Source: Iphione sp. A-MEVVRFRX5 (taxonomy: Eukaryota). From it: DNA of 64,000 bases. Within the stretch, counting starts at the first letter, position 1, and each line of letters begins with the position of its first letter. Shown in pieces: positions 7,078-54,700 of this stretch. The position numbers and the translations under genes are program-made. The notes beneath the pieces are model-generated. The model made no database searches, was not told the origin of the DNA, and worked only from the letters and a program-made list of their open reading frames with translations. The stretch lies in the NCBI GenBank assembly GCA_976226885.1, contig OZ320313.1:70432001-70496000 (forward strand), written 5' to 3'.

Positions 7078-7649
7078 GTAGTTCTGCCAACGATAAAATA
7101 AACAAGTGGATGGAATACATTGAAATGTAATCATTATTTAAAGCGGCATCTTGTATGACTTAGACAAAAACGCACTTGACAACCACCATTTTAGTTATGT
7201 ACTTATCATACAAAGAATTTGATTGGATGAAATATGAAATCTCACCAAAGCACATTGGCGTGAGAAGTTGTTTTGTTACACGACCTATTAAAAACATTGC
7301 CTGAAAGTAGTCTGTCCCCATGAAATCTCACCTCATACTGATGTGACTTCAGAAAGAAACAGTATTTTTAGATTCAATGGTATATTTGTGAATATTATTC
7401 AAATAGATGAAGGAACGGCATATTTTGCTCCTTGAAATAGACAATCTTTGAATGCATATAGATGTTTATGCACTATTTTCTTGAGCTGCATGTAGTAATA
7501 CACCCAGTGACCTTGACCTTCAAATGGTAACAAAGAAAGAGAGCTCCATGATATGCAACCAATCCAGGTGCCAAAGGCACTTGTTGACATTAAAATTAAA
7601 GATGCTACATTGGATTTCAGAAGCAATATGTGTAGAGAGAGGAGCAGGC

Positions 7650-8012
7650 AAAGAGCATCGTACTAACAAGAGAGTCAACTCCTGCAAAATCGTGTAACAG
7701 GCATGGATGGTGCTGCCTTCTAGTGTTATGACTGTACACTTTCATCCTTAGCCAATCAGAGCTTATGAAACTGTTCTATGTAGGAAAAAGAAAAAAAGGT
7801 TTTTTAAATATTGCTGACAGTTAGTTTCACCTATCCTATAGGCCTTGTGAATAATTATAGCATAGAAAAGCAAGTAAACTAATTGTGTAGAAATTGAAAT
7901 CTGAAATGATTTTTGGCAAAATGTACAGTTATACCACTAGGTGGCCAGGTCCCCAGTGCTGTTGCGCTTAGACCAATGGGAGTTGACACTCTTGTTAGTA
8001 CGACACTCTTTT
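7650..8012. mobile_element. MITE-like element with ~25-30-bp TIRs
   Basis: TCGTACTAACAAGAGAGTCAACTCC (7658-7682) pairs with GGAGTTGACACTCTTGTTAGTACGA (7979-8003), one mismatch. Confidence 0.6.
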
Positions 8013-8324
8013 GAGCAGGTCTGAGCTAGTGGTAAGCAGGAAGTGCTTTATTGAGTCTCTAAGTAGCGAGAGTTACAAAATTCAATATGGTGGTGGTAAA
8101 CATTTCAATTGTCTCCCTTTTTTTAAAAGAAAAAAAGCTTAAGTGTTTAAGAAAGTTTTTAGTTTTCATAAGATCTGGAAAGAGTCTTTTAAGATTGAGT
8201 CTTTTCAAATTGAAGAAATGTCTGTGATGGACTTTGTTTATGTGAAGGAAATCATTGCCATCAACTGTGGCTCATTGCTGTGATGTTAGTGGCATTATTC
8301 TGGGCATTGTGTAACATCTTGTTG

Positions 8325-9108
8325 CTACTTTTTAACATTGTCTTTCGCCAAGTATGCTGGTGGTCTGGATGTGTGACCAGATCTTGTAACTGCTCTCAGC
8401 TTGCCTGAAGGGGTCTTGGTTGGACTAACAGACTCAGGCTGTGGACATACTGGAACAGGTGCCTGGTTTGTGACTGGCACAATCACTGGCTGTGGTGGTG
8501 CAGGGCTTGATTGGTGAGGTGCGTCAAGCCTTTCCTGAGTCCCCCTAAGTGGTGATGGTTTCGTCATAACAGCTGGTGATTGGCATTGACTATGTAGGAG
8601 CAAGGACCAACCTTTTCTTGTACTGTACCTAGAGTCCAGGCAAACGATGTTTGTGGTTTCACTTGGACTCCCACTGGTTGTCCAATTGTCAACTGTAGCA
8701 ATGGCTTGATGCTGCGGTCATAACTGCGCTTGTTCTTCTGTTTCCTCTTAGCCAGCATTTCAGGTACAGCATTGACAATGTGAGGCACATACTTTGTCTC
8801 AGCTGCAGATAGTAGTGACTTGGTATGTCTGGACATGAGTCACTCTGCAGGACTGGAGTGCAGGTCTTGGGATGGTGTGTTATGTTGTTCAAGCAGCATG
8901 ATATAGATGTCTGTCTTGTTCTTCTTCGCCCTTTTCATCAGATTTTTGGCAACTTTTACTGCTGCTTTGGCTCTGCCATTACCTTGTGGACAACGTGGTG
9001 AACTGGTGACATGTTTGAACTTGTATTTCCTTGCAAACTCTGCAAACTCACTCAACGCATAGTTAGTTCCATTGTCAGTGATAAGAACTGATGGAATTCC
9101 ATGTACAG
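8325..9108 (-). pseudogene. C-terminal integrase fragment of a Mag-like Gypsy element
   Basis: VHGIPSVLITDNG...FKHVTSSPRCPQGNGRA; GPY/F-like WTLGTV..KVGPCSYIV; tail RSGHTSRPPAYL. Frameshifted. PPT-like AAAAAAGGGAGA on the minus strand near 8111-8124. Confidence 0.85.
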
Positions 9109-9209
9109 ACGTGACTCCAAGTCTGAACACTCAAAAAGTGAATTTCCCTAAATCTGAAAAATTTTTCTGGGAACCAAACATTTTTCTCTATTTAGACACT
9201 CATATATAT

Positions 9210-9475
9210 TGTTGGTGGAGGGGTTTGTTCGATGTCGGCAGAGGGGATTTTCAGGTCAGGGCAGAGGGACGGAGGCTTAGTGCGGGTTTGGCGGACGGAG
9301 CGCGGAGGCGGAGGAGGTGCAGAGGGGCTTTTTGTCTATATAAGTGGAAGCGGCGGAGGCGGAGTTCAGTTGTTGTTTGTACCATCATTATGCATGTACT
9401 CTTCTCGGAATAAATTTCACAGTTCAATTCACTGAGGAGTGGAACTTCTTTATTACGAAATGGCCAAAGCTAACA
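9210..9475 (+). repeat. 5' LTR of element B
   Basis: TGTTGG...CTAACA; TATATAA and AATAAA motifs; ~95% identical to 17436-17701. Confidence 0.95.
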
Positions 9476-9476
9476 T

Positions 9477-9494
9477 TGGTGGCAGCGGTGGGAT
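9477..9494 (+). other. Primer-binding site complementary to tRNA-Leu (AAG/UAG type)
   Basis: TGGTGGCAGCGGTGGGAT one base after the LTR end; complement of the recalled tRNA-Leu 3' end ATCCCACCGCTGCCACCA. Confidence 0.85.
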
Positions 9495-9607
9495 ACGGTG
9501 CCGGGGAAGGGACCAGGATACTCAGGACCCTTCATCTGCTAAGCACCCGGCATCGACCAGGCGGCCCACGGAGGTAGAAGGACCTGAGAGAAGAGTAACC
9601 CGTAGCG

Positions 9608-10696
9608 GTGGGGGAGGACGCCGGCTCGACGACGTGGGAGAACAACACAACAGAAGGCCCAAGCGGCCAGCTCGGACCCCTTCCCGCCTGTGGGGCAGCT
9701 GAGGGGATGGAGGCGGATGGACCTGAGGGTCCGCCCGCGGAGGCGGAAGCGGTGGAGGTAGTTCCCCACAGGAGCCCCAGGATGCGGTGGCACCCACGGG
9801 AAGGTCCACATCTGTGGACGGAACTGTTTCTGAGTCCAACTCAGACCCCGAGTTGGATGTTATCAGCGGCGAGGAGTCGGCGGAGGAGGAGAAAGAGATC
9901 GCCGTGGTGGAGGTAGGTGGGGCACAACGAGGTCAGGTCAAGCCCAAATCCTTTGATGGGACCCAGGACTGGGAGGACTACCTCCACCACTTTAATCTCG
10001 TGGCGATGGTAAATAAATAAACTGGGAGTCTGCCTCCGTGGGCCAGCACGAGCAGCTATGAGGGCAGCTAGAGTAGACGTTAACACACGGGCAGCATTCC
10101 ATACCCTGGTCAAGACTTTGGCCGCGAGGTTCCAGTCTCCTGAGCAAGTAGACATATTCAAGCAGAGGCTTAAGTCATACAGGCAAAAAATGGGGGAGGA
10201 CCTGCTTCAGTTAGTGTACGCGATAGAGCGCCTGGTCCAGAGGGCTTACCCGGGCATCAAGGGACATTTGGCAGAAGAGCTGTGCAGAGAGAGTTTCGTA
10301 CAGGCAGTGAAGGATGAGCGCATTAGACAGTGGATTGTCCAGAAGAGGGTGGAGGGATTCCGGGCCACAGTGTCTGAGGCCGCCTTCGCCAAAGCTTATT
10401 ATAAGAATCGGGAGGAGAGGGAGAGCAGGAAAAACATGGGCGGAGGTACCTGAACCAGGTGCAACGTGGTGTTGGTGGAGGGAGTCAACAAGGTGGTGCC
10501 GGGGCCTGCCCCCACGGCGACGGAGGAACTCCTGCTGAAGTTGGCAGAGCGAATTGAAAGTTTGGAAGGGAAGTGGAAGACTTCAGGCAGTCAGAAGAAG
10601 ACAGGGTGTTTGCACTGTGGAAAGGAGGGGCACTTTAGGCGTGAATGTCCGGAGAAGCCCAAACTGGTGGAAAACGACAAGCCGTCCTCCCAGTAA
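9608..10696 (+). pseudogene. gag of element B, with stops and frameshifts
   Basis: QVKPKSFDGTQDWEDYLHHF; LAARF...IFKQRL; zinc knuckle CLHCGKEGHFRREC. Confidence 0.85.
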
Positions 10697-13600
10697 GGGG
10701 AGAGGGAGAGACAGCGGAGGTGCTCATCCCCAGGGTCGTGGTGGTAGAGAAGAGGAGCAGGGAGGAGGGAGGTCACGAAGAAGACGAAATAGGCGGAGAA
10801 GTGGATCGGACATCAGGAGCTCTCACTCTGACTGGAGTGGTGCAAGGACGGCCGCTGACATGGCTGGTGGATACCGGGGCCTCCGCGACCATCATTGCCC
10901 GTAGGGTCATGGAGCAGCTCGGACTGCGGGTTCGGCCAAAGCTGGAACAGAGGATCGTGGGTGCGGATGGCCGGCCTCTTCAGTGTCATGGGGAGACCGA
11001 ACTAGAAGTGCAATTTCAGATGACAAAGTGGCTGATCAAGGCGTTGGTCGTGGAAGTGGAGTACGCCGCCATCCTGGGATGGATGCCCTCCGCCAACGAG
11101 GTGCGGTGGTTGATATGGCAAGGGGTTCCTCCGTCTTCCCCCCAAGGATTCCCCCTCGGCCATCGTACAAGTAGCCAGAGACGTGCAGGTAGCTGGAGGA
11201 GGAGGAAGCGTCATCCCAGTGACGGTGGCAGGAGCGGAGGCAACTCACTGAATGATGGAACCAGAAAGGAGGTTCGAAGTGGCCAACGGAGTGTGGATAC
11301 CTAGGTCCGTGTTGCCTGGGGGGGCCAGTGAAACAGCTATCTTATGCGTGAATACTACAGCGGAGGGATGATGGCTGAGGAGGGAAGCCACGGTGGGCCA
11401 GGCGGAGCCTGCGGAGCCAGCAGAGGCCACGGAGGACACGAAGTTGGAAGGTCCCGAGGCGGGGGAGGAGGTCGTCTGTGAACTGATGGAGACAGTCCCC
11501 AAGGAATTTTCAGATGATGAGAGGGAGGCCCACCGCCGCGTGCTACGGGGGCATCGGAGGGTGTTTCAAGTTAAAGATGGAGCTATGGGAAGGACTGATT
11601 TGATCTGGCATGAGATTCACACTGGTGATGCAGAACCCATTCGGCAACAATTTGGGCAGCTCCCGGCCCATAAACGAAGAATCGTGGAGGAGGAGGTGCA
11701 GAAGATGGTGGCATAGGGAGTGTTGGAGCCCTCACGGAGCCTGTGGGCCTCACCTATCATCCTGGTCAAGAAGAAGTCGGGGGAGTGGCGATTCTGTATT
11801 GATTTCTGGAGGCTAAATGAGAAGACCCGGAAGGACGCATACCTGATCCCGCGGGTCGACGACACCCTAGATGGGCTGGCGGGGGGAAGTTCTTCTCTAT
11901 CATAGATCTGGCCTTGGGATACTGGCAGGTGGAGGTAAAAGAAGAGGACAGGGAGAAGACTGCAATGTGCACCCCGGGGGGCCTCTACCAATTCAAAGCC
12001 ATGCCCTTCGGGTTGTGCAACGCACCCTCCACCTTCGAGAGGCTCATGGAGGTGGTGCTCTGCAGCTTGATAGGTGAAGGATGTCTCGTGTACCTAGACA
12101 ATGTTATCATCATGGGCACCACTGTGCAGCAGATGTGCAATCAGTTAGGGGAGGTGCTCGGTCGACTAGAAGAAGCTGGGATGCGAGTGAAGCCTAAGAA
12201 CTGCCAGCTACTACGGAGGGAAGTGACCTACCTCGGACATGTGGTTTCAGCGGCGGGGGTTCAACCCGACCCGGAGAAGGTTTGAGTGGTCGCGGAGTGG
12301 CCAGAGCCCGCTTCTGTGAAAGAGGTGCGGAGTTTCTTGGGGCTGGCATCTTACTACAGGTCCTTCATCCGCGATTTCGCGTGGTGGGCGGAGGCGCTCC
12401 ACTGACTGCTGGAGAAGGGGAAGAAGTTCGAGTGGGGAATGGATCAGCGAGCCTCGTTCACCGACCTTAGACAGTGTCTCATCATGGCCCCAATTCTAGG
12501 ATTCCGGACACCAGAGGGCCAGTTGATCCTTGACACTGATGCCTCTGCGGAAGGCCTGGGTGCAGTGTTGTCCCAGCGGCAGCAAGAGGGAGAGCGAGTG
12601 CTGGCCTATGCACGTCGAACTCTCACCCGAATGGAGAAACGTTTATGTGTTACCCAAAAGGAGCTTTTCACTGTAATTTTTGCACTGAGGAAATTCAAGA
12701 CGTATATGTCAGGAAGGAAGGTGGTCATTCGAACCGATCATGGGAGCCTCCGCTGGTTGATGCATTTCCGTGAGCCCGAGGGGCAAATGGCCCGCTGGCT
12801 GGAGGAGATCTACTGCCGGGACGTAGACATCATCCATCGGGACAGGTTCACAACAATGCAGATGCCCTGTCCCGGCAGCCGTGCAGGCAGTGTGGTCGTC
12901 CGGACGGAGAGTCGGAGGAGGCGGCGGGCGCGGAGGGCATCCTGGCACTTCAAGTTCGACTGGTGGTACAGCCCACCAAAATAGTGGCGGTCAGCAAGGA
13001 CGAACATCTGAGGGAGGTACTCCATCGCCTGGAAGAGGGGAGCGGACCACCGGATTGGGGGCCAGAAACCACCTGGGAGGAGAGGAGGCTTTTTATAGAG
13101 TGGAGCAGGCTGTCGACCGATCGTGGGCAGCAGAGGACGGGCGGACGTGGCCTCAGACGTTGGTCCTCGAAGGTCTAAGGAAAACGTGTTGGGAGGAGGT
13201 GCATTCGGGAGCCTTCGGGGGACACCCCGGCCCGGACAAGACAGCGGGTCTGCTGCATACGAAGTTCTTTTGGCTGGGACTGAGTCGGGATGTCCAGCTC
13301 TGGGGAGGAAGTTGCTCAGTCTGCCTGGAAAGGAGAAGCCCTCCGCGATGGCGGTGCACCCGGCTACAGCGCCGACAGCCCGGGGGGCAGTGGGAGATGG
13401 TGGCAGTGGACGTTCTGGGCCCCTTCCCCAAGACAGAGCGAGGAGCCAAATATGTGTTGGTGGCATGTGACCATTTCACCTAGTGGGCAGAGGCATTTCC
13501 TCTACATATGCTGGCCATGGAGGACACCGCCCTGGTATTAGTGCGGGAACTGATCTGTCGTTTTGGCCCTCCGTGGGTCATACACAGCGACCAGGGGAGG

Positions 13601-14085
13601 AATTTTGAGGCGCGACTGGTAGCGGAGGTCCTACGACTGTGTGGAGTGGAAAAGACGTGGACTACATCCTACCACCCGCAGGCAGATGGTCAGGTGGAGA
13701 GGTTCAATCGGACCCTGCAACACATGCTGGCCACTACGGTGGAGGAACATCAAGCTTCGAGACCGTGTTCATTCGGCACATCGGCTAGCCTTCCAATGGA
13801 TGAAGGAAGGTATCGCTCGACAGAAGGACTGGTATGATCAGAAGGTGTGTCCGACCTCGTACCAGGTGGGGGAGGAGGTGCACGTATTCCACCCAGTCAG
13901 AAAGCACGACTCTCGCTGAAGTTTGGCGATTCTGGGACAGCCCTGGATTGTGCAAGAAGCCCTCTCGGAAGCAGTGTACAGGGTGAAGAAAGGGCGGAGG
14001 GAGCGAGTGGTCCACGCAGACCTGTTGAAGCCAGGAAGAAGGGCCTCCGCGAGGGGAGCAGCAGGGATTCCCCAGCCGCGGTGAC
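10645..14085 (+). pseudogene. pro-pol of element B, multiply disrupted
   Basis: Protease LVDTGAS; RT WASPIILVKKK, MPFGLCNAPSTF, YLDNV; RNase H DTDASAEGLGAVL and RTDHGSLRW; integrase VDVLGPFP, HSDQGRNF, QADGQVER; C-terminal VYRV..VVHADLLK. Confidence 0.9.
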
Positions 14086-14229
14086 CGTTACAGTGGCGAG
14101 CGTATGGTGGGAAGCCACAGCCAATCACTGTGAGGCGGAGGAAAGCCTGAGGCGCCTCCGTGGAGCAAGTCATATAAAACTGCACGGGAAAGCAGCAGCC
14201 GAGTCATTGCAAGTTCTACTGCTCGAGAA

Positions 14230-17200
14230 GATGCCACAAAGGAAACCTAGCGGACCTTGGCTCTAATACCCCAAGTGCCCTTACACCTGTGATCGGAAGG
14301 ACAATTTGAGGCGCCACATGAAGCTGCATGATCAATACGGGTATGCGTGGAGCTGTCCGTCCCCCCGCTGCCCGGAGAAGGTGTTCCAGCGGAAGGACGA
14401 CCTGCGCTGCCATCTGGAGACGAAACAACATGACACTGAAAGGGGGAGGGAAGTTGATGAAGAAATCAAAGGAGTGCTACTATCAATTCTTCAAGGTGGA
14501 GGGGTCCACCGTGCTCAGGGGAAGGCCCGCTGACCCCTCCGCAGTGGAGGGAGGCCCGCAGCCAGGGTCCAAGCAAGGGCAAGCGCAGAAGGGAGGCGAA
14601 GAGGCTCCCTCCACTGAAAGTGAGGCGGAGGAGGGAGAGGAACCTGCGGAGGTGGTTGTCTCATCGGAAGACTTAGACGAGGACGAGGAGTGGGAACCCC
14701 AGCCGTCCACCTCAGCGGAGAGCCCTCCACGGCCCCCTCTGAGGAAGAAGGGGAGCAAGACCAGGGGAGACGCCCATAAGCGGACTCAGGAGTTGGCGGG
14801 CTTTCGCGGCCCTACCCTGGTGAAGGAGGCGGAGAAGTCCCCACGCACCCTGTGTAGTGAGCTGCGAGATGCCATCACCGGCCTGGAGGCTCGACACCCG
14901 GCCTCACCAGCAAGCTCTCCGGCCACGGTGGCTCAGATGGTAGAGAACGGCAGACCGACTCGAGAAGGCAATGTTGGGATCCCCCGCCTCTGGGGTCGTA
15001 CTTTGAAGTAGCCCCCTTGCCAAGTGGCGGTTGGAGGAGGACCCGAAGAAGAAGGACGGGGCCAAGTGGGGCCGCGGCCGTGGCCCTGCATTGTCCCCCC
15101 TGGTGAGCCGTTTAGGTGGGCAACTCCCCAAGGTACCCTCGCTGCTGCTAATGGAGGAGCGGACCCCACCAGCTCTACCCCCAGAGGTGGCTTCGCCGAA
15201 GTTAATCACACTGGACATCACCAGAGGGAAGACCGGACGAATCTTGGCATTGTCGACCCCCAGTATGCCGCCAACACTTGAGAACTTGAGTGAGCTGGTT
15301 AAACGGTTGCAGGAGGAGGGGGGCCCCCGGGCTTCTCCATGGAGGGTGGAAGAGGTGGCGGCGGCGTTTCGCTCGATGTTTGGCGATTTGATTGTCATGA
15401 TGGCCCCTCCCAGTGACCAGGCGGAGGACACGCGGAGGATGCAGAGTTCCTCTGAGGAAGAACTCGCGGACCAGCTCCTGGCCTCAGAAGAAGACGAGGA
15501 GGGCAGCTCTCAAGAAAAGGCGCTGACCGTGGCCCCCAAGATACAGTATGTAGAGGTAGGCGGGGTGCTGGAAATTCATGAAGCTGTCACACCCAACATC
15601 CCAGCAGAAGGGCATCAGTGCGCCTCCAGCCGAACGCGACCCCCGACGACTGGCCGCGGAGGTGCTCCAATGGGGGGCGAAGCAGGCAGTGGCTGCAGTT
15701 CGAGTGGTAGAAGCTCAACAAGGAGGAGGAGTGATGGCCGCCGAACCGGGTGAGGCGGAGAGCGGAGGGCCAGTCGCCAGACCGAGTGCGGGGGAGACAC
15801 CCTCCATGGTACCGCGGAGGGTCACCACCCCCCCCCCCGGGCTCCCTTCAGCCCCTGGAGGATCCTTGTTGCCAGGTGGAGGGGAGCCCCTGATGGCAGT
15901 CTTGACACGGCGAGAGGGGTCTCCCTTGCACGGCTTCCCGCAGGCGGAGGGAAAAGCAACGGCAGTGGAGATGGTACCTGGGGAGACCGCGGACAAATCG
16001 ACGCCCCAGGGCAAGCAGCGCGGAGAAGCTCCAGGGGGTGACCCCTCCCGGGCGGAGCTCCCTCCATGATGGAGGGAGGATGAACACGGGGAGGGGGCCA
16101 GGCCAGCTCCTCCCCACGTTGAACGGCAAGGGAGAACCCCGGAGGGTGGTCACACACCCCGAGATGAGCACCGCGGAGGCCAGCCAAGGGACGGCTGAGC
16201 TGGGGCAGAGCCCCCTCCATGACGGAGGGAGGACGAACATGGGGAAGGAGCCAGGCCAGTTTCCCCCCACATCGTGCAGCGCAAGGATGTTACGAAGTGC
16301 GACCCCCGTAGAATAGAGCCCCCTCCACGACGGAGGGAGGACGAACATGGGGAAGAAGCCAGGCCGGCCTCTCCCCACATCGAGCGGCGCGAGGAAGTTG
16401 CGGAGGGTGACACCTTGTTGTAGAGCCTCCTCTTCAATGGGGGGAGGACAAGCAGGGGAAGGGGACCAGGTCGGCCCCTCCCCACGTTGAGGGAACGATA
16501 ACGGCAGCAGTGGGTACGGCGAGTGACCCCCGTGGAGTAGAGCCCCTTCCACGATGGAGGGAGGACAAACATGGGGAGGGAGCCAGGCCAGTCCCTCCCC
16601 ACATCGAGCAGTGCGAGGAGGTTGCAAAGGGTGACCCCCGTGGAATAGAGCCCCCTCCACGACAGAGGGAGGATGAACACGGGGAGGGAACCAGGCCGGT
16701 CCCTCCCCACATCGAGTGGCGCGGAGACGTTACAGAGGGCAACACCCTTGGAGTAGAGCCCCCTCCACGACGGAGGGAGGATGAACATGGGGAGGGAACC
16801 AGGCCGGTCCCTCCCCACATCGAGCGGCGCGGAGACGTTACAGAGGGCGACACCCTTGGGGTAGAGCCCCCTCCACGATGGAGGGAGGACGAACACGGGG
16901 AGGGGACCAGGCCGGCTCCTCCCCATGTCGGGTGGCGGCCGAGATCGGAGGGTACCGACCCTCCGCCATCCGCGGGGGATGCAGTGTCAGAGGGGACTGC
17001 GACACCTCCCTCCGGCTCGCGTGGACCGGGGAGAAGGCAATGCCGCTGAACTCTTTCGCGTGAGGCGGCGCGATGTCCAAGTGACGATTGCCAGAATGCT
17101 GAGATCTGGGCACGATGGGCCGCCGCGCGGCAGATTACATGTGATGCTGACCCTTCGTGCCTGGACAATCAAAACAAGCAAAGGCCGTAGCCGCTTAGCT

Positions 17201-17424
17201 AGAAGTGCCGACGGACTAGTAATAGGAGTGAGGCATGAACTTTCTCTTGCACGGGAGGCGGAAGAAGCTGATGCACAGATGCTATCCCGTTGGTTTAGCA
17301 AGGCCACAGTGATTCCAGAAGAGTTAAGTTTAGAGATTTTGTCTTTGAACTTAACATTGATAAGGATTATGCTGTTGTCGAGGTTGACGAAGTATTTGGT
17401 GTTACTCAGGACGAGTTTGTTTAA
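14230..17424 (+). pseudogene. Accessory ORF of element B: C2H2 zinc fingers, acidic/Pro-rich region, 36-aa repeats, C-terminal domain
   Basis: (Y)PKCPYTCDRKDNLRRHMKLH and CPSPRCPEKVFQRKDDLRCHLETKQH at ~14268-14452; long open stretches at 14328-15011, 15031-15753, 16510-17049 and 16925-17424; lies between the end of integrase and the PPT. Confidence 0.65.
16053..16930 (+). repeat. ~8 copies of a 108-bp (36-aa) coding tandem repeat
   Basis: TAGAGCCCC anchor at 16206, 16314, 16421, 16538, 16646, 16754 and 16862; unit GVEPPPRRREDEHGEGTRPVPPHIERRGDVTEGDTL. Confidence 0.9.
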
Positions 17425-17435
17425 GAGGGAGGTAG

Positions 17436-17701
17436 TGTTGGCGGAGGGGTTCGTTCGATGTTGGCAGAGGGGATTTTCAGGTCAGGGCGGAGGGACGGAG
17501 GCTTAGTGCGGGTTTGGCGGAGGGAGCCCGGAGGCGGAGGAGGTGCGGAGGGGCTTTTCGTCTATGTAAGTGGGAGCGGCGGAGGCAGAGTTCAGTTGTT
17601 GTTTGTACCATCGTTATGCATGTGCTCTTCTCGGAATAAATTTCACAGTTCAATTCACTGAGGAGTGGAACTTCTTTATTACGAAATGGCCAAAGCTAAC
17701 A
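17436..17701 (+). repeat. 3' LTR of element B
   Basis: Follows the PPT; matches 9210-9475. Confidence 0.95.
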
Positions 17702-18289
17702 TTATGAAATATTCGATTTCTGTATCTGAATGCTATTATTTGATTAAAATACATTAAAATTATATTCAAAAACCGAATTCTCTGTCTTCTGCGTTCGTAA
17801 TAAATCAACCCAAAATGGACTGTATCAGAGGTTAAAAGTATAATACATTTAAATTATATTCTAAATCCGAATGCTAAGCCTTGGCGAGCTGACAGTAAGC
17901 CCGGGTAGCTCTCTAAGTTCGTTATTAATCAAAGGGAACCGCTACTCTTTGACCTGCTCTCACTTTGGCAAGCTGTCGGCGAGCCCAGTCACTCTCCCCC
18001 ATGTTCTGTATAAATCAAAGGGAAATGCTACTCTTTGACCCACTTTTACCTCAGCGAGCTGTCGGCAAACCCGGTCGCTCTCCCCCAAGTTTGTTATAAA
18101 TCGAAGGGAACACTACTGTTTGACCAGCTTGTAGGTGATTGAAAATCCAGGTAGGGCCTAGGGCCCGAATTAACTGATTGAATGTGACAGTGGCCTTAGG
18201 CCACTATTCGAAATCCGAATTTTCCCAGAACTGAACAATTTTGGCAGAAACGGTGATCGTTCAGATTTTGAACAAAGTTTTGCTTAAGG

Positions 18290-46910: not shown

Positions 46911-47030
46911 ATTTGTAGGATATACGAACTTACCTTAAGTGATGTATGGGCATAATTTTCAATCTGTATATGCCCACAAGGGGGCATCTATGAGAACCCC
47001 TAGCGTCGAGTACAACCGGCGCACCTCAGT
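46911..47030 (-). repeat. DIRS1 right ITR and right extension
   Basis: 46990-47030 is the reverse complement of 51691-51731; 46914-46992 is the reverse complement of 47094-47172. Confidence 0.9.
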
Positions 47031-47093
47031 TGTTGAAAGGAAGATTTCCTGAAAGACCAAGAGAACATGGATTAGGGTGGGCATATGGGAGGG

Positions 47094-47213
47094 CATAGAT
47101 GCCCCCTTGTGGGCATATACAGATTGAAAATTATGCCCATACATCACTTAAGGTAAGTTCGTATATCCTACAAATTTTAATTCTGTATATGCCCACTAGA
47201 GGGCTTCCATGAG
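47094..47213 (-). repeat. DIRS1 internal complementary region (copy of the circle junction)
   Basis: Contains the right-end sequence joined through AAT to the left-end sequence (CCTACAAATTTTAATTC). Confidence 0.9.
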
Positions 47214-47277
47214 ACTTTAAAGCCAAGTGAACATGGGATTGAAGGAAATCAACAAACAAAAAGAACAAACCTTAACA

Positions 47278-51474: not shown

Positions 51475-51690
51475 GCCTAACCACCGGTAACACCGTATGG
51501 AACACCAAGGGAAGCCTTGTGGCAGGTGTAAGGCACAAATAAATCACAAACAACTGCCTAAACAGTTATAAATGGAGGGCACTGAAAGCTGGAATTGAAA
51601 TAAAAAAGTATACTTATCTTCACACCGAAAAGACTGCAAAACAGTAGTGCCCTACGAGGTGCATCCGAGTCGTACGACTGCTAGTAGACG

Positions 51691-51767
51691 ACTGAGGTGC
51701 GCCGGTTGTACTCGACGCTAGGGGTTCTCATGGAAGCCCTCTAGTGGGCATATACAGAATTAAAATT
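51691..51767 (-). repeat. DIRS1 left ITR
   Basis: Pairs with 46990-47030 and with ICR 47173-47213. Confidence 0.9.
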
Positions 51768-54700
51768 AAATATGTGTGTGTGCGTATGGCTCGCTAGGTC
51801 TTCCGTGCAGCAAAAGAAAAAAATCGCTGTTTTTTTAAAAAAATTATTTTACTTTCGAAAAACAACGCAATTGTATGTCGATTTACATTTCTATACCAGC
51901 ATGCCATCAAGTAACATTACAATGTTTTCGGATATTCAGGATTACTTGATCTGAAAGATATAAAAGATTGGTATGTGTTAATCTGCACAGCTAAGCTATA
52001 GCTATGATCTATGTTTTAAGCTAAAATCATTCATTGCTACAAGTCCTTGGCACAGAATATTTTCTCATAGAATGTAGCCAGCGCTTCCCAAAATCAATGC
52101 AACTGTGGAACTAGAGCTTTCAAACGTGTGAGAGCAGTGTGAAAGGTTCCAATGTCGCATGACTATATTGTTGTCATAGGCGGATAACAATACAGTCCTA
52201 TTTAAATGTCATTGGTCTCATATGAGTGAAACTTGAATGATATCTAAGGTAATTAATCAGATTAATTGTCAGTAGTGCACCTTTCCAACTTAGTGTCTCA
52301 TCAGGCATCTTTGGATGTACTGGTTAATCACGGTTCTGATTCGTCGTGAAAGCAGATTGCACTGGGTACAGGGCGGGCAAAGGTGAACCTGGTTCCTGTT
52401 GGGTGTTGTGTTGTGGCACGAAGACCCCCAGTGTTGCTCCAAACTGTTTGGATGTAAGTGGGGGTCACCCAGCAAGTGAATTCAGTTGAGCCTGTGACTT
52501 CCTTCAGCCTCTACTGATCAATCAGTTCTGAGCTGGAACGATCTACTCGCTGGTCATATTAGCATTATAGTTCGTTTCCCGTGGGCATTCGTCTCTAAAG
52601 GGCATAAAACATCCTGTATCACTTTATGATGCTTTGCTTTTATATAATTATATACTTTAATTCGGAGATTCTTTGACGATTTTTGTGGTATTTATTGCAA
52701 TTTCAAAAGAATTGACTTGATGTTCAAGGTAACATGCAAATGGTATATATAGAGAAAGCAGTAACGAAAAGCTAAGGATTTATTATGTACATTTGGTACT
52801 CCTCATTGAAATGTATATTCCATGAGCACGTTCACATACTGATGTCTGGGAATGCGTTAGCAAAGTGACATCATTTTAAGAAATGCCCTCTATGAAATTA
52901 ACAATTTATACTAGACAGAGGACACCCTCTCCTTTATTTTGGTTTTTGAATTTTTAAAATTAGGTTAAGTGGTTGCTGAATTAAAAAAAAAAAGTTTCGT
53001 ACTACAAAATCTGAATAAGAGAAGAATCTAGTGCAATCTTGTCCCATAGAAACAATGCAGATAGCTGACTAAAGGAGGCACTGTGATAGATTTTCCCAAC
53101 ACTTTCTTCATTATGAAACTTTATACACGTTTTCAGATATGAAAAATTAAAGCTTAGTAAAAAAAAATGAGCCTTTCTTATGGTGTATGCCCTTTCCTAT
53201 TATATGATATTCTCATTATATCTAGCATAATATGTCTTTGTAGCATTTCTAAAAACGGAAATATATGACGGAAACTTAGTTCAAGTATGTGGGGAAAGAG
53301 CAAGGTTTCACCTACTTGACTGCCAATTTCCAAAAAGATCATTGCATGGAATATAGGCTTTTGGTCAAAGATACTGTATACCATTCATTGTGGGGCCATT
53401 ATTGGGACAGGAAACAGGTTTGTTGTCAGTGGTGGGAATTAACCTTCACAACACTGCTCTATGCACGTTGCTAGATGCATTCATAGGTATGTGATTTGAT
53501 GAGAAAAAATGATAAGTAAATGGTTTTCCAGGATGAGAACGTTTCAGCACTGATCATCTGGGTCAACCACCCTGTAATTATTTCAAGGTACACCATTTTC
53601 GGGTAATCACAAAACCTATTTTGGACATAAGAATATGCTGACCACCTTGTTTAAAACTACTACGATGGAGCCCAACATTTTATACTGGTCCAAAATAATT
53701 GATTAATAGTAAGTCAGTGAGCATCAAGTTTTCACCGAAAGATGAATGTATGCCATTAACATGTCAATGCATCATCTCTAACTGGAAATATAATGTGAGA
53801 TTTTTGTTTCATTTTACTTGACACACATCAACATGAACTGTATACTGAGTAGGAGATCCACGAAAAATACTGTGCACACCTCTGGACATGTTTTCATGTG
53901 TCACAAACCTGTGACTGTAACCAAAGAATAATGAGCAATGCCGACTAACTTCCTTTGTAAGAGCCGTGTCAATCCTTGCATGCTCAGCATTATTCCATAT
54001 TATCTCCACACCAGCCAGCTTTCATGTATTACAAGACTAATTTTATATATATACCACTTATCATCCACTACCCTGTCTGTCTCAGGACACTCACACACAT
54101 ACACACCACCTGCATATAATGATGCTTCTAAAGTAAAGTTTCATTTACTCTCTAATTATTTAGTTGTGACTTTATGAACAATAACTGTTGATAATAAAAG
54201 TGTCAGAAAATCAGATTAGCTGTTTAAGATATATCATTTTATGAGATTGCCACAACAAAATTCAACAAACAGACATCTAATATGGGTTACAGCCCACGGG
54301 AGTTAGAGACATGTATAGGTCAAAGGAAATAACGCAAATTTCAGAAATTGTTACAGTGGAGACATTAGCAAATATATTCTGAGCACCTTCTTGGAATCTG
54401 ACGTCTTCCGTCTAGACATCAAAACATATGCCGGGACACTTGTTTCATTGCAGCCTCTTTTGACTGCATAAAGACATGCACACTGAACAACTGAACGTTT
54501 TATGCAGAACATCGGGCCACTACTGAGAAACCACCTCCCCTTGCTCCCCTAGGCCATACCGCGACACCACCTCCCCCTGTTCCTCTAGGCCATACCGGAG
54601 GTGTCATCAAGTTCTCACGGTCAAAATTAGGCACCTAATGACTGGCACCAAAAGTTCCCGGCACTTACTGACGGATTCCCCACTTTACAAGTAACCACAC

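Follow-up and report, generated by a model that had tools for sequence, protein, structure and literature searches.

Retrotransposons with long terminal repeats (LTRs) are usually thought to depend on host transcription factors, and C2H2 zinc fingers are known chiefly as a host weapon against them. In chromoviruses and others, targeting modules are fused behind the GPY/F region of integrase. A regulator carried by the element itself is described for foamy viruses, whose Tas (Bel1) has an internal promoter with response elements located there and in the U3 of the LTR (available part of PMC3798896). Here we analyse a 64,000-nucleotide (nt) stretch of the genome of Iphione sp. A-MEVVRFRX5 (contig OZ320313.1, positions 70,432,001 to 70,496,000, forward strand), referred to as the window, which carries at 9210-17701 a complete but decayed Ty3/Gypsy element. 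This element belongs to a clade with a two-finger C2H2 protein that likely binds a word of its own LTR and of the linker behind integrase and likely activates its own transcription, a reading to which we give somewhat better than an even chance.

The comparison with Tas, based on the available part of the source, rests on a regulator gene situated 3' of the enzymes, an internal promoter (predicted here), words shared by this promoter and U3, and a DNA-binding part combined with an acidic region. Unlike Tas, the present protein belongs to a Gypsy element without env, uses classical C2H2 fingers, has its predicted promoter in an open pol linker, exists additionally in a Pol-fused form and is larger (700-1,160 amino acids (aa) versus 209-308 aa). 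No match indicating homology to Tas was found in Pfam, the PDB or the protein databases and the likeness is one of analogy. VANC of the Arabidopsis VANDAL DNA transposons is likewise an element-encoded protein associated with multi-copy words that differ among related families (available parts of PMC6719617 and PMC5735166); it differs in belonging to a plant DNA transposon rather than a retrotransposon and in acting on non-coding regions, whereas here the words also occur in coding DNA. The chromoviral modules share the position behind the GPY/F region, but the present extension has no chromodomain, exceeds 1,100 aa, and is predicted to target its own element rather than the site of insertion. 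Among animals, bdelloid rotifers too have Gypsy-like LTR retrotransposons in which something other than env is encoded 3' of pol; their ORF3 encodes enzymes, a GDSL esterase and a DEDDy exonuclease, and the words 'zinc' and 'finger' do not occur in the available part of the text (PMC5408684). A search of the literature by titles and abstract openings, which did not extend to repeat databases, found no comparable finger-bearing Gypsy element. To be regarded as new are the covariation of finger helix and word across 13 lineages, the cross-test with the linker, and the negative results for targeting and CpG protection.

The features on which the argument depends are as follows (window coordinates).

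14013-14266, forward strand: linker between integrase and fingers, open and in frame in intact relatives, with a one-base frame change near 14070 here
14120-14126, forward strand: CCAAT box of the predicted internal promoter, present at this site in 36 of 40 family-1 sequences
14135-14140, forward strand: GCGGAG, predicted finger site between CCAAT and TATA; in inverted orientation, a decayed copy at 14156 and a site at 14045
14173-14179, forward strand: TATAAAA of the predicted internal promoter, found in 37 of 40 family-1 sequences
14231-14233, forward strand: conserved in-frame ATG ahead of the fingers, found in 38 of 40 family-1 sequences
14267-14329, forward strand: finger 1, helix RKDNLRR here, predicted to read GAG, first zinc ligand lost
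14354-14431, forward strand: finger 2, helix RKDDLRC here and RKDDLRR in intact relatives, predicted to read GCG, resembling finger 1 of Zif268/EGR1

An earlier note, made from the window letters, had described a stand-alone accessory open reading frame (ORF) of about 3.2 kb at the env position. Its length holds, ATG 14231 to TAA spanning 3,194 nt, but the frame of the window copy is closed by stops and frame changes, and the stand-alone status must be abandoned: as in relatives integrase and fingers share one frame without a stop, the finger region is a Pol extension. A DNA search of the same genome, in which the best 40 of 121 candidates were scored and all were matches, retrieved 39 copies besides that of the window. 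Integrase lies directly upstream of the fingers in 38 of them, the exception having an internal deletion, which rules out the nested insertion that the note had considered. Young copies (LTR pairs 99.6-100% identical) have a single frame of 2,408-2,437 aa from protease to the stop at the polypurine tract. Anchoring was possible for 37 of 40 sequences; in 29 of them integrase and fingers are joined in frame over 267 nt, in 23 without a stop, and the stops of the others are scattered in position.

Further searches, started from other fingers and from the integrase family (150 scored each), added 78 loci, picked mostly for long open frames and hence biased towards fusion. Of the 107 loci with both anchors, 100 are in frame and 97 stop-free, with linkers of 243-1,893 nt; up to this length the linkers appear to be open beyond what chance would allow at that base composition. 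A quick tree resolved 13 lineages, in every one of which the finger pair is in the integrase frame, with an upstream ATG and the same C-terminal domain. Across the clade, intact natural copies read as one frame of 2,100-2,700 aa comprising protease, reverse transcriptase (RT), ribonuclease H and integrase (PR-RT-RH-IN), the linker, two C2H2 fingers, a disordered region and a 117-aa domain. Loci L169 and L173 (no finger pair under the pattern used) and L152 and L171 (no usable 3' LTR) were dropped, L140, L170 and L174 were omitted from the tree, and the U3 window of L142 was set too long.

The extension is under purifying selection comparable to that on RT. In four pairs of natural copies, the ratio of nonsynonymous to synonymous divergence (dN/dS) was 0.03-0.11 in the block from the ATG to the fingers, 0.04-0.11 in a middle block and 0.00-0.07 in the C-terminal 117 aa, RT itself giving 0.04-0.07. 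Values for the linker were 0.37-0.55, the intervals being wide, and those for the repeats, whose mapping is uncertain, about 0.5-0.7. In the pair L054/L044 the values were 0.05 for RT, 0.10 (0.04-0.18) for the fingers, 0.05 each for the middle block and the C-terminal domain, and 0.55 for the linker. A neutral passenger is ruled out by ratios near the RT level. Hence, the test of frame integrity and dN/dS proposed in the note gave intact single frames in young copies and RT-like constraint, the region being retained rather than missing or relaxed in other copies; its suggestion of a (passively) captured host fragment is disfavoured by this constraint and by retention in 13 lineages.

The two tandem fingers are present as the note had read them, with a Pfam zf-C2H2 E-value of 9e-5 in the window, below the curated cut-off. 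The Tyr at the first zinc-ligand position is correctly read for the window copy; it is no family trait, as in-frame copies have Cys there, and represents decay. The ligand pattern C-x2-4-C...L-x2-H-x3-5-H is invariant in all 16 aligned sequences, while the window copy is one ligand short, and modelling gave the beta-beta-alpha finger fold with a pLDDT (predicted local distance difference test score) of about 80 across the fingers. Finger 2 aligns with finger 1 of Zif268 (E about 0.02), with the same R/acidic/R contact pattern; unlike in Zif268/EGR1, an eight-residue linker with G-aromatic takes the place of TGEKP, an extended hairpin follows finger 2, and there are only two fingers.

C2H2 fingers that bind DNA do so antiparallel. 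The intact helices (positions -1 to +6) are R-K-D-N-L-K-R in finger 1 and R-K-D-D-L-R-R in finger 2. With the code table entries RSDNLVR for GAG and RSDDLVR for GCG (available part of PMC5260015), finger 2 is predicted to contact the 5' triplet GCG and finger 1 the 3' triplet GAG, giving GCGGAG as the predicted target. The match with the LTRs is not blind, the GGCGGAGG repeats having been noticed there before the code was applied. As the flanking bases differ between families, the shared core of the LTR word comprises six bases. GCGGAG occurs in 9-10 copies per young LTR in both families; it is the top or joint-top hexamer in seven of eight family-1 and family-2 LTRs tested and second in the window copy, and its count was not reached in any of them by 2,000 shuffles. 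Most LTRs have a word in their first 12 nt. In the linker it is found between CCAAT and TATA, together with an inverted copy. In the LTRs of L101, L125 and L118 the family words form inverted pairs (e.g. -95/-79 and -22/+17 from TATA), hinting at dimeric binding. Seven other Gypsy families used as controls have neither the finger pair nor an excess of GCGGAG.

Finger 1 and the word in LTR and linker change together across lineages, as judged from aligned helices and words. In finger 2 of the 16 aligned sequences, R(-1) and D(+3) are invariant and R(+6) nearly so, and the LTR words start with GCG; conservation in this finger is confined to the base-contact positions. Finger 1 varies. Helices of the type R/K-x-D/A-N-L-x-R go with GAG (with GGG and GAG in one lineage), N-x-Y-R-L-K-R with GGG, I-Q-Y-R-L-E-R with words having G in the middle, N-K-Y-R-L-L-K with AGN, Q-P-S-N-L-x-R with GCA, H-Q-S-N-L-N-R with GCT, L-Q-S-N-L-N-R weakly with GCA, and Q-R/K-Q-N-L-R-R with GAG plus GCA. 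Residue by residue, R(+3) accompanies a middle G in three of three lineages, Q(-1) a final A in two of three and H(-1) a final T, and with K(+6) the initial G is lost. The word of a copy's own LTR is enriched in its linker in 13 of 17 copies. The match of LTR and linker profiles within lineages was 0.41 versus 0.12 when permuted (0 of 20,000 permutations); an equal stretch of integrase used as a control gave no such match (3,048 of 20,000).

These data bear on the proposal that the LTR words serve host factors of the Sp/KLF, EGR or E2F-like GC-box type, the fingers themselves binding RNA, protein or the like. GC-rich boxes are common in LTRs and code mismatches are seen in four to five lineages, but the word follows the changes in finger 1 and recurs in the family's linker, finger-2 conservation is limited to base contacts, and the control families lack both fingers and word excess. 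We therefore regard this proposal as very improbable, and binding of the family's own word by the fingers, in whatever role, as highly probable by our own estimate, in which the first four explanations discussed in this text (self-activation, anti-silencing, autorepression and an integrase accessory) are summed.

The linker probably contains an internal promoter, predicted from motifs, and the finger protein is read as its likely product rather than as that of an RNA spliced from the 5' LTR, for which the note had suggested looking. In family 1, TATA follows CCAAT by 52 nt and the ATG lies another 58 nt on. In a second family (49% identity in the last domain), the 52-nt CCAAT-TATA spacing is kept in eight of nine copies, and in representatives of both families the conserved ATG is the first one more than 25 nt past TATA. 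The letters of CCAAT and TATA are fixed even though adjacent residues vary, with the rarer Asn and Lys codons being used, and synonymous divergence in the linker is low. Looking across the clade, a CCAAT-TATA pair is present in the linkers of four of 13 lineages and a weaker pair in a fifth, with no pair in 57,555 nt of pol. Part of family 1 has an initiator-like TCATT. An NF-kB-like 10-mer of the family-1 linker was set aside because it is absent in family 2.

In the LTRs of half of the lineages, words lie on either side of TATA, near -20 and +17 from the TATA start; 16-18 nt past this start a word is found in six of 13, spelled as in the respective family. Such placement points to action at the core promoter, which could be of either sign. 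The protein may be an autorepressor or a two-state copy-number switch that turns the LTR down once copies have become abundant. The initiation complex sits at about these two positions, and hundreds of copies could share a trans-acting brake. Conversely, it is activators, such as Tas, that typically have arrays of 5-10 upstream sites, a disordered acidic region and a feed-forward arrangement in which the protein's own promoter carries sites, and the families, which are young (99-100% identity between paired LTRs), are numerous. We consider repression improbable.

A further explanation is a sequence-specific anti-silencer, the animal counterpart of VANC, whose fingers would use the same words to protect the entire element from methylation or heterochromatin. 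It is plausible because the host methylates these elements: transitions between paired LTRs amount to 5.6% at CpG against 0.4% elsewhere, indicating methylation after insertion. The word contains a CpG and is spread over the coding region of two families; in pol of both it ranks first among all hexamers when compared with codon shuffles (32 versus 8.2 and 29 versus 7.8), with sites on both strands, 13 of 32 being at the same codon in both. VANC also works through multi-copy words differing between families (PMC6719617 and PMC5735166, available parts). For VANC these sources report demethylation, whereas no CpG protection is seen here in the decay rates: the word's CpG decays at 11.4% (36 of 315), against 8.9% and 12.9% for other LTR CpGs, so that, by this measure, it enjoys no lasting protection. 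Besides, the spread over the coding region concerns two of seven families only, and fixed placement around TATA suits core-promoter action better. Anti-silencing is hence an unlikely function, albeit the most serious competitor of self-activation.

The fused form might alternatively serve integration, gripping the LTR ends of new DNA or tethering integration to chromatin through the C-terminal domain, with transcription being secondary. Each of the 13 lineages has kept the linker open, so that the fusion is likely under selection, and the word in the first 12 nt of most LTRs is in keeping with such a role. However, GCGGAG occurs once in 16,240 nt of flanks (180 and 380 nt; 29 young insertions) compared with 17 occurrences in 55,157 nt of window sequence beyond the element's borders. 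Young insertions strongly favour sites that are (TA)n or rich in A and T, where the duplicated 4 bp are ATAT/GTAT, the two copies reading ATAT/ATAT in 16 of 29. An integrase accessory would also leave the linker promoter, the ATG and the TATA-flanking sites unexplained, and we think this role slightly less probable than repression. Accordingly, of the nuclear DNA-binding factor envisaged in the note, the element-encoded, constrained and probably nuclear nature stands and the targeting role is disfavoured. In eight of the 29 young copies the target duplications are mismatched solely at the base touching the LTR (ATAG/ATAT in five, ATAT/TTAT in three), and one more reads ATAG/ATAC; the mismatched base matches the one that the element itself has next to its opposite LTR, a pattern that would arise if a single end base were joined unprocessed.

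Self-activation is favoured because the layout, with a predicted promoter of the protein's own and sites shared by this promoter and U3, is that of foamy-virus Tas, and a private on-switch is likely because the predicted word recurs in the promoters of a family and changes when the finger changes. Host factors would first fire the linker CCAAT-TATA promoter, yielding the finger protein alone from the ATG at 14231. Its fingers would bind GCG-GAG in the linker, closing a positive loop, and the array around the LTR TATA, giving more full-length RNA, while the acidic disordered region and the C-terminal domain would recruit host machinery. The retained fusion suggests a second, particle-borne form, in which Pol would bring the protein along inside the particle, the regulator then being immediately at hand for each new DNA copy. 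Finger 1 and word would then drift together, resulting in partly private family circuits. That a self-encoded transcription factor is indeed made twice in this way, once as free protein and once fused to integrase and brought in together with the new DNA copy, and that families diversified by rewriting one finger helix together with the LTR, linker and even synonymous-codon word, is in our estimation a little short of an even chance.

Several observations weigh against self-activation. Eight to nine of 13 lineages lack a canonical CCAAT-TATA pair. The middle base is C in the LTR where the code gives A in four lineages (two with QPSNLxR, HQSNLNR and LQSNLNR), the Q[RK]QNLRR lineage favours GAG over the predicted GAA, and the overall match to the code is 1.57 of 3 versus 1.30 when permuted (17 of 20,000), with a code table that was fixed once the LTRs of six families had already been seen. 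The 13 lineages share ancestry and are not independent, corresponding to about five changes on the tree. A single GCG-word is significant in 24 of 40 LTRs, the misses being concentrated in three lineages with degenerate words; enrichment in the coding region is restricted to the said two of seven finger-bearing families tested, and control LTRs were examined at n=1. A word placed immediately past TATA might hinder initiation instead of promoting it.

Behind the fingers, the acidic Pro/Ser-rich stretch with basic patches and the 36-aa repeats were found as previously described. The C-terminal domain shows 16-49% identity among lineages with six invariant residues and was modelled with a pLDDT of 84.5. 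In a fold search nothing reached E<=0.001; the best VIA match (Z 7.1, root mean square deviation 3.2 over 96 residues), a phage tail-terminator-like alpha/beta fold, falls in the common range. Protein searches with the finger region returned 22 and 32 candidates, none at E<=0.001, and a profile search with the C-terminal domain gave two weak matches, both to unrelated tandem-repeat proteins, a second run giving none among 7,997 scored; these libraries are poor in translated animal retrotransposons. Searches of the Atlas yielded no usable match or generic C2H2 clusters, and sequence searches of Pfam and the PDB nothing significant. In line with the note, env features are missing: no hydrophobic run of at least 14 residues and 0-3 sequons were found in the 13 lineages, and there was no env match in Pfam. 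An env identity is ruled out by the missing hydrophobic runs and missing Pfam match. A Pfam scan of two whole natural Pol frames detected no chromodomain behind integrase at E<=1, the fingers holding that place.

The remaining features of the element in the window are listed here.

9206-9209: left target-site duplication ATAT, the right copy being TTAT at 17702-17705
9210-9475, forward strand: 5' LTR, TG...CA, with TATA at 9337, AATAAA at 9409, four intact GCGGAG and four CpG-decayed look-alikes
9477-9494, forward strand: primer-binding site, presumably of the tRNA-Leu type, with an identical 18-mer in nearly all relatives
9520-10696, forward strand: gag, broken, start approximate, weak PNMA/Retrotrans_gag match, CCHC knuckle near the end (zf-CCHC E 7e-5)
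10660-14030, forward strand: broken pol (PR-RT-RH-IN) that lacks, compared with relatives, about 178 nt of integrase at 13753; integrase end motif at 14013
14432-16200, forward strand: hairpin after the fingers, then acidic Ser/Thr-Pro-rich region with a strongly constrained block at about 14838-15361, broken here
16207-16925, forward strand: 108-nt (36-aa) tandem repeats, 6.6 copies, number and unit differing among families
17074-17424, forward strand: conserved 117-aa alpha/beta domain of no known family, with stop
17423-17435, forward strand: polypurine tract, abutted by the TAA at 17422-17424, as noted earlier
17436-17701, forward strand: 3' LTR, with six GCGGAG

The element has the hallmarks of Ty3/Gypsy, namely TG...CA LTRs (266 nt, 94.8% identity), primer-binding site, polypurine tract, short target-site duplication, gag, and the order PR-RT-RH-IN with a GPY/F-type integrase end (Pfam Integrase_p58_C, E 1.6e-6). 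Eight of the 13 differences between its LTRs are CpG transitions. Its frame is broken by a stop just upstream of finger 1, by further stops at 14941, 15004 and 17047, and by at least four frame changes past the ATG when mapped onto an intact natural copy.

Gag and pol, which are in different frames, share about 34 nt (oriented positions 1724-1757 in L054, about 10660-10696 in the window), suggestive of a -1 frameshift. The protease region shows low synonymous divergence. Young copies of two families (L054, L056, L063, L080-L085, oriented about 7500-9000) have, in a second frame over the repeats, an ORF of 310-425 codons that is probably a by-product of these repeats. L171 has a 3' LTR of the NQYRLKR family type, followed by a primer-binding site, and a coding part of the IQYRLER family, i.e. 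a nested or recombinant junction. L039 and L040 (C11) are related copies in inverted orientation, about 7 kb apart. Elsewhere in the window, an unrelated Gypsy integrase fragment (rve, E 8e-6) lies on the minus strand at 8325-9130, directly left of the element, and an inverted repeat that is perfect over 82 nt and has related arms at a distance of 4.6 kb (46911-47214 and 51688-51768) is possibly a small DNA transposon.

As the finger code is partly readable and 13 natural helix-word pairs are at hand, the co-evolution of a regulator with its sites is directly testable in this clade, and finger engineering can learn from the four lineages in which the code fails. If self-activation is true, fingers aimed at the element itself would reverse their usual role as a host weapon, a feature of complex retroviruses would enter Gypsy, and the evolution of private gene circuits would be readable, lock and key, in an env-less retrotransposon.

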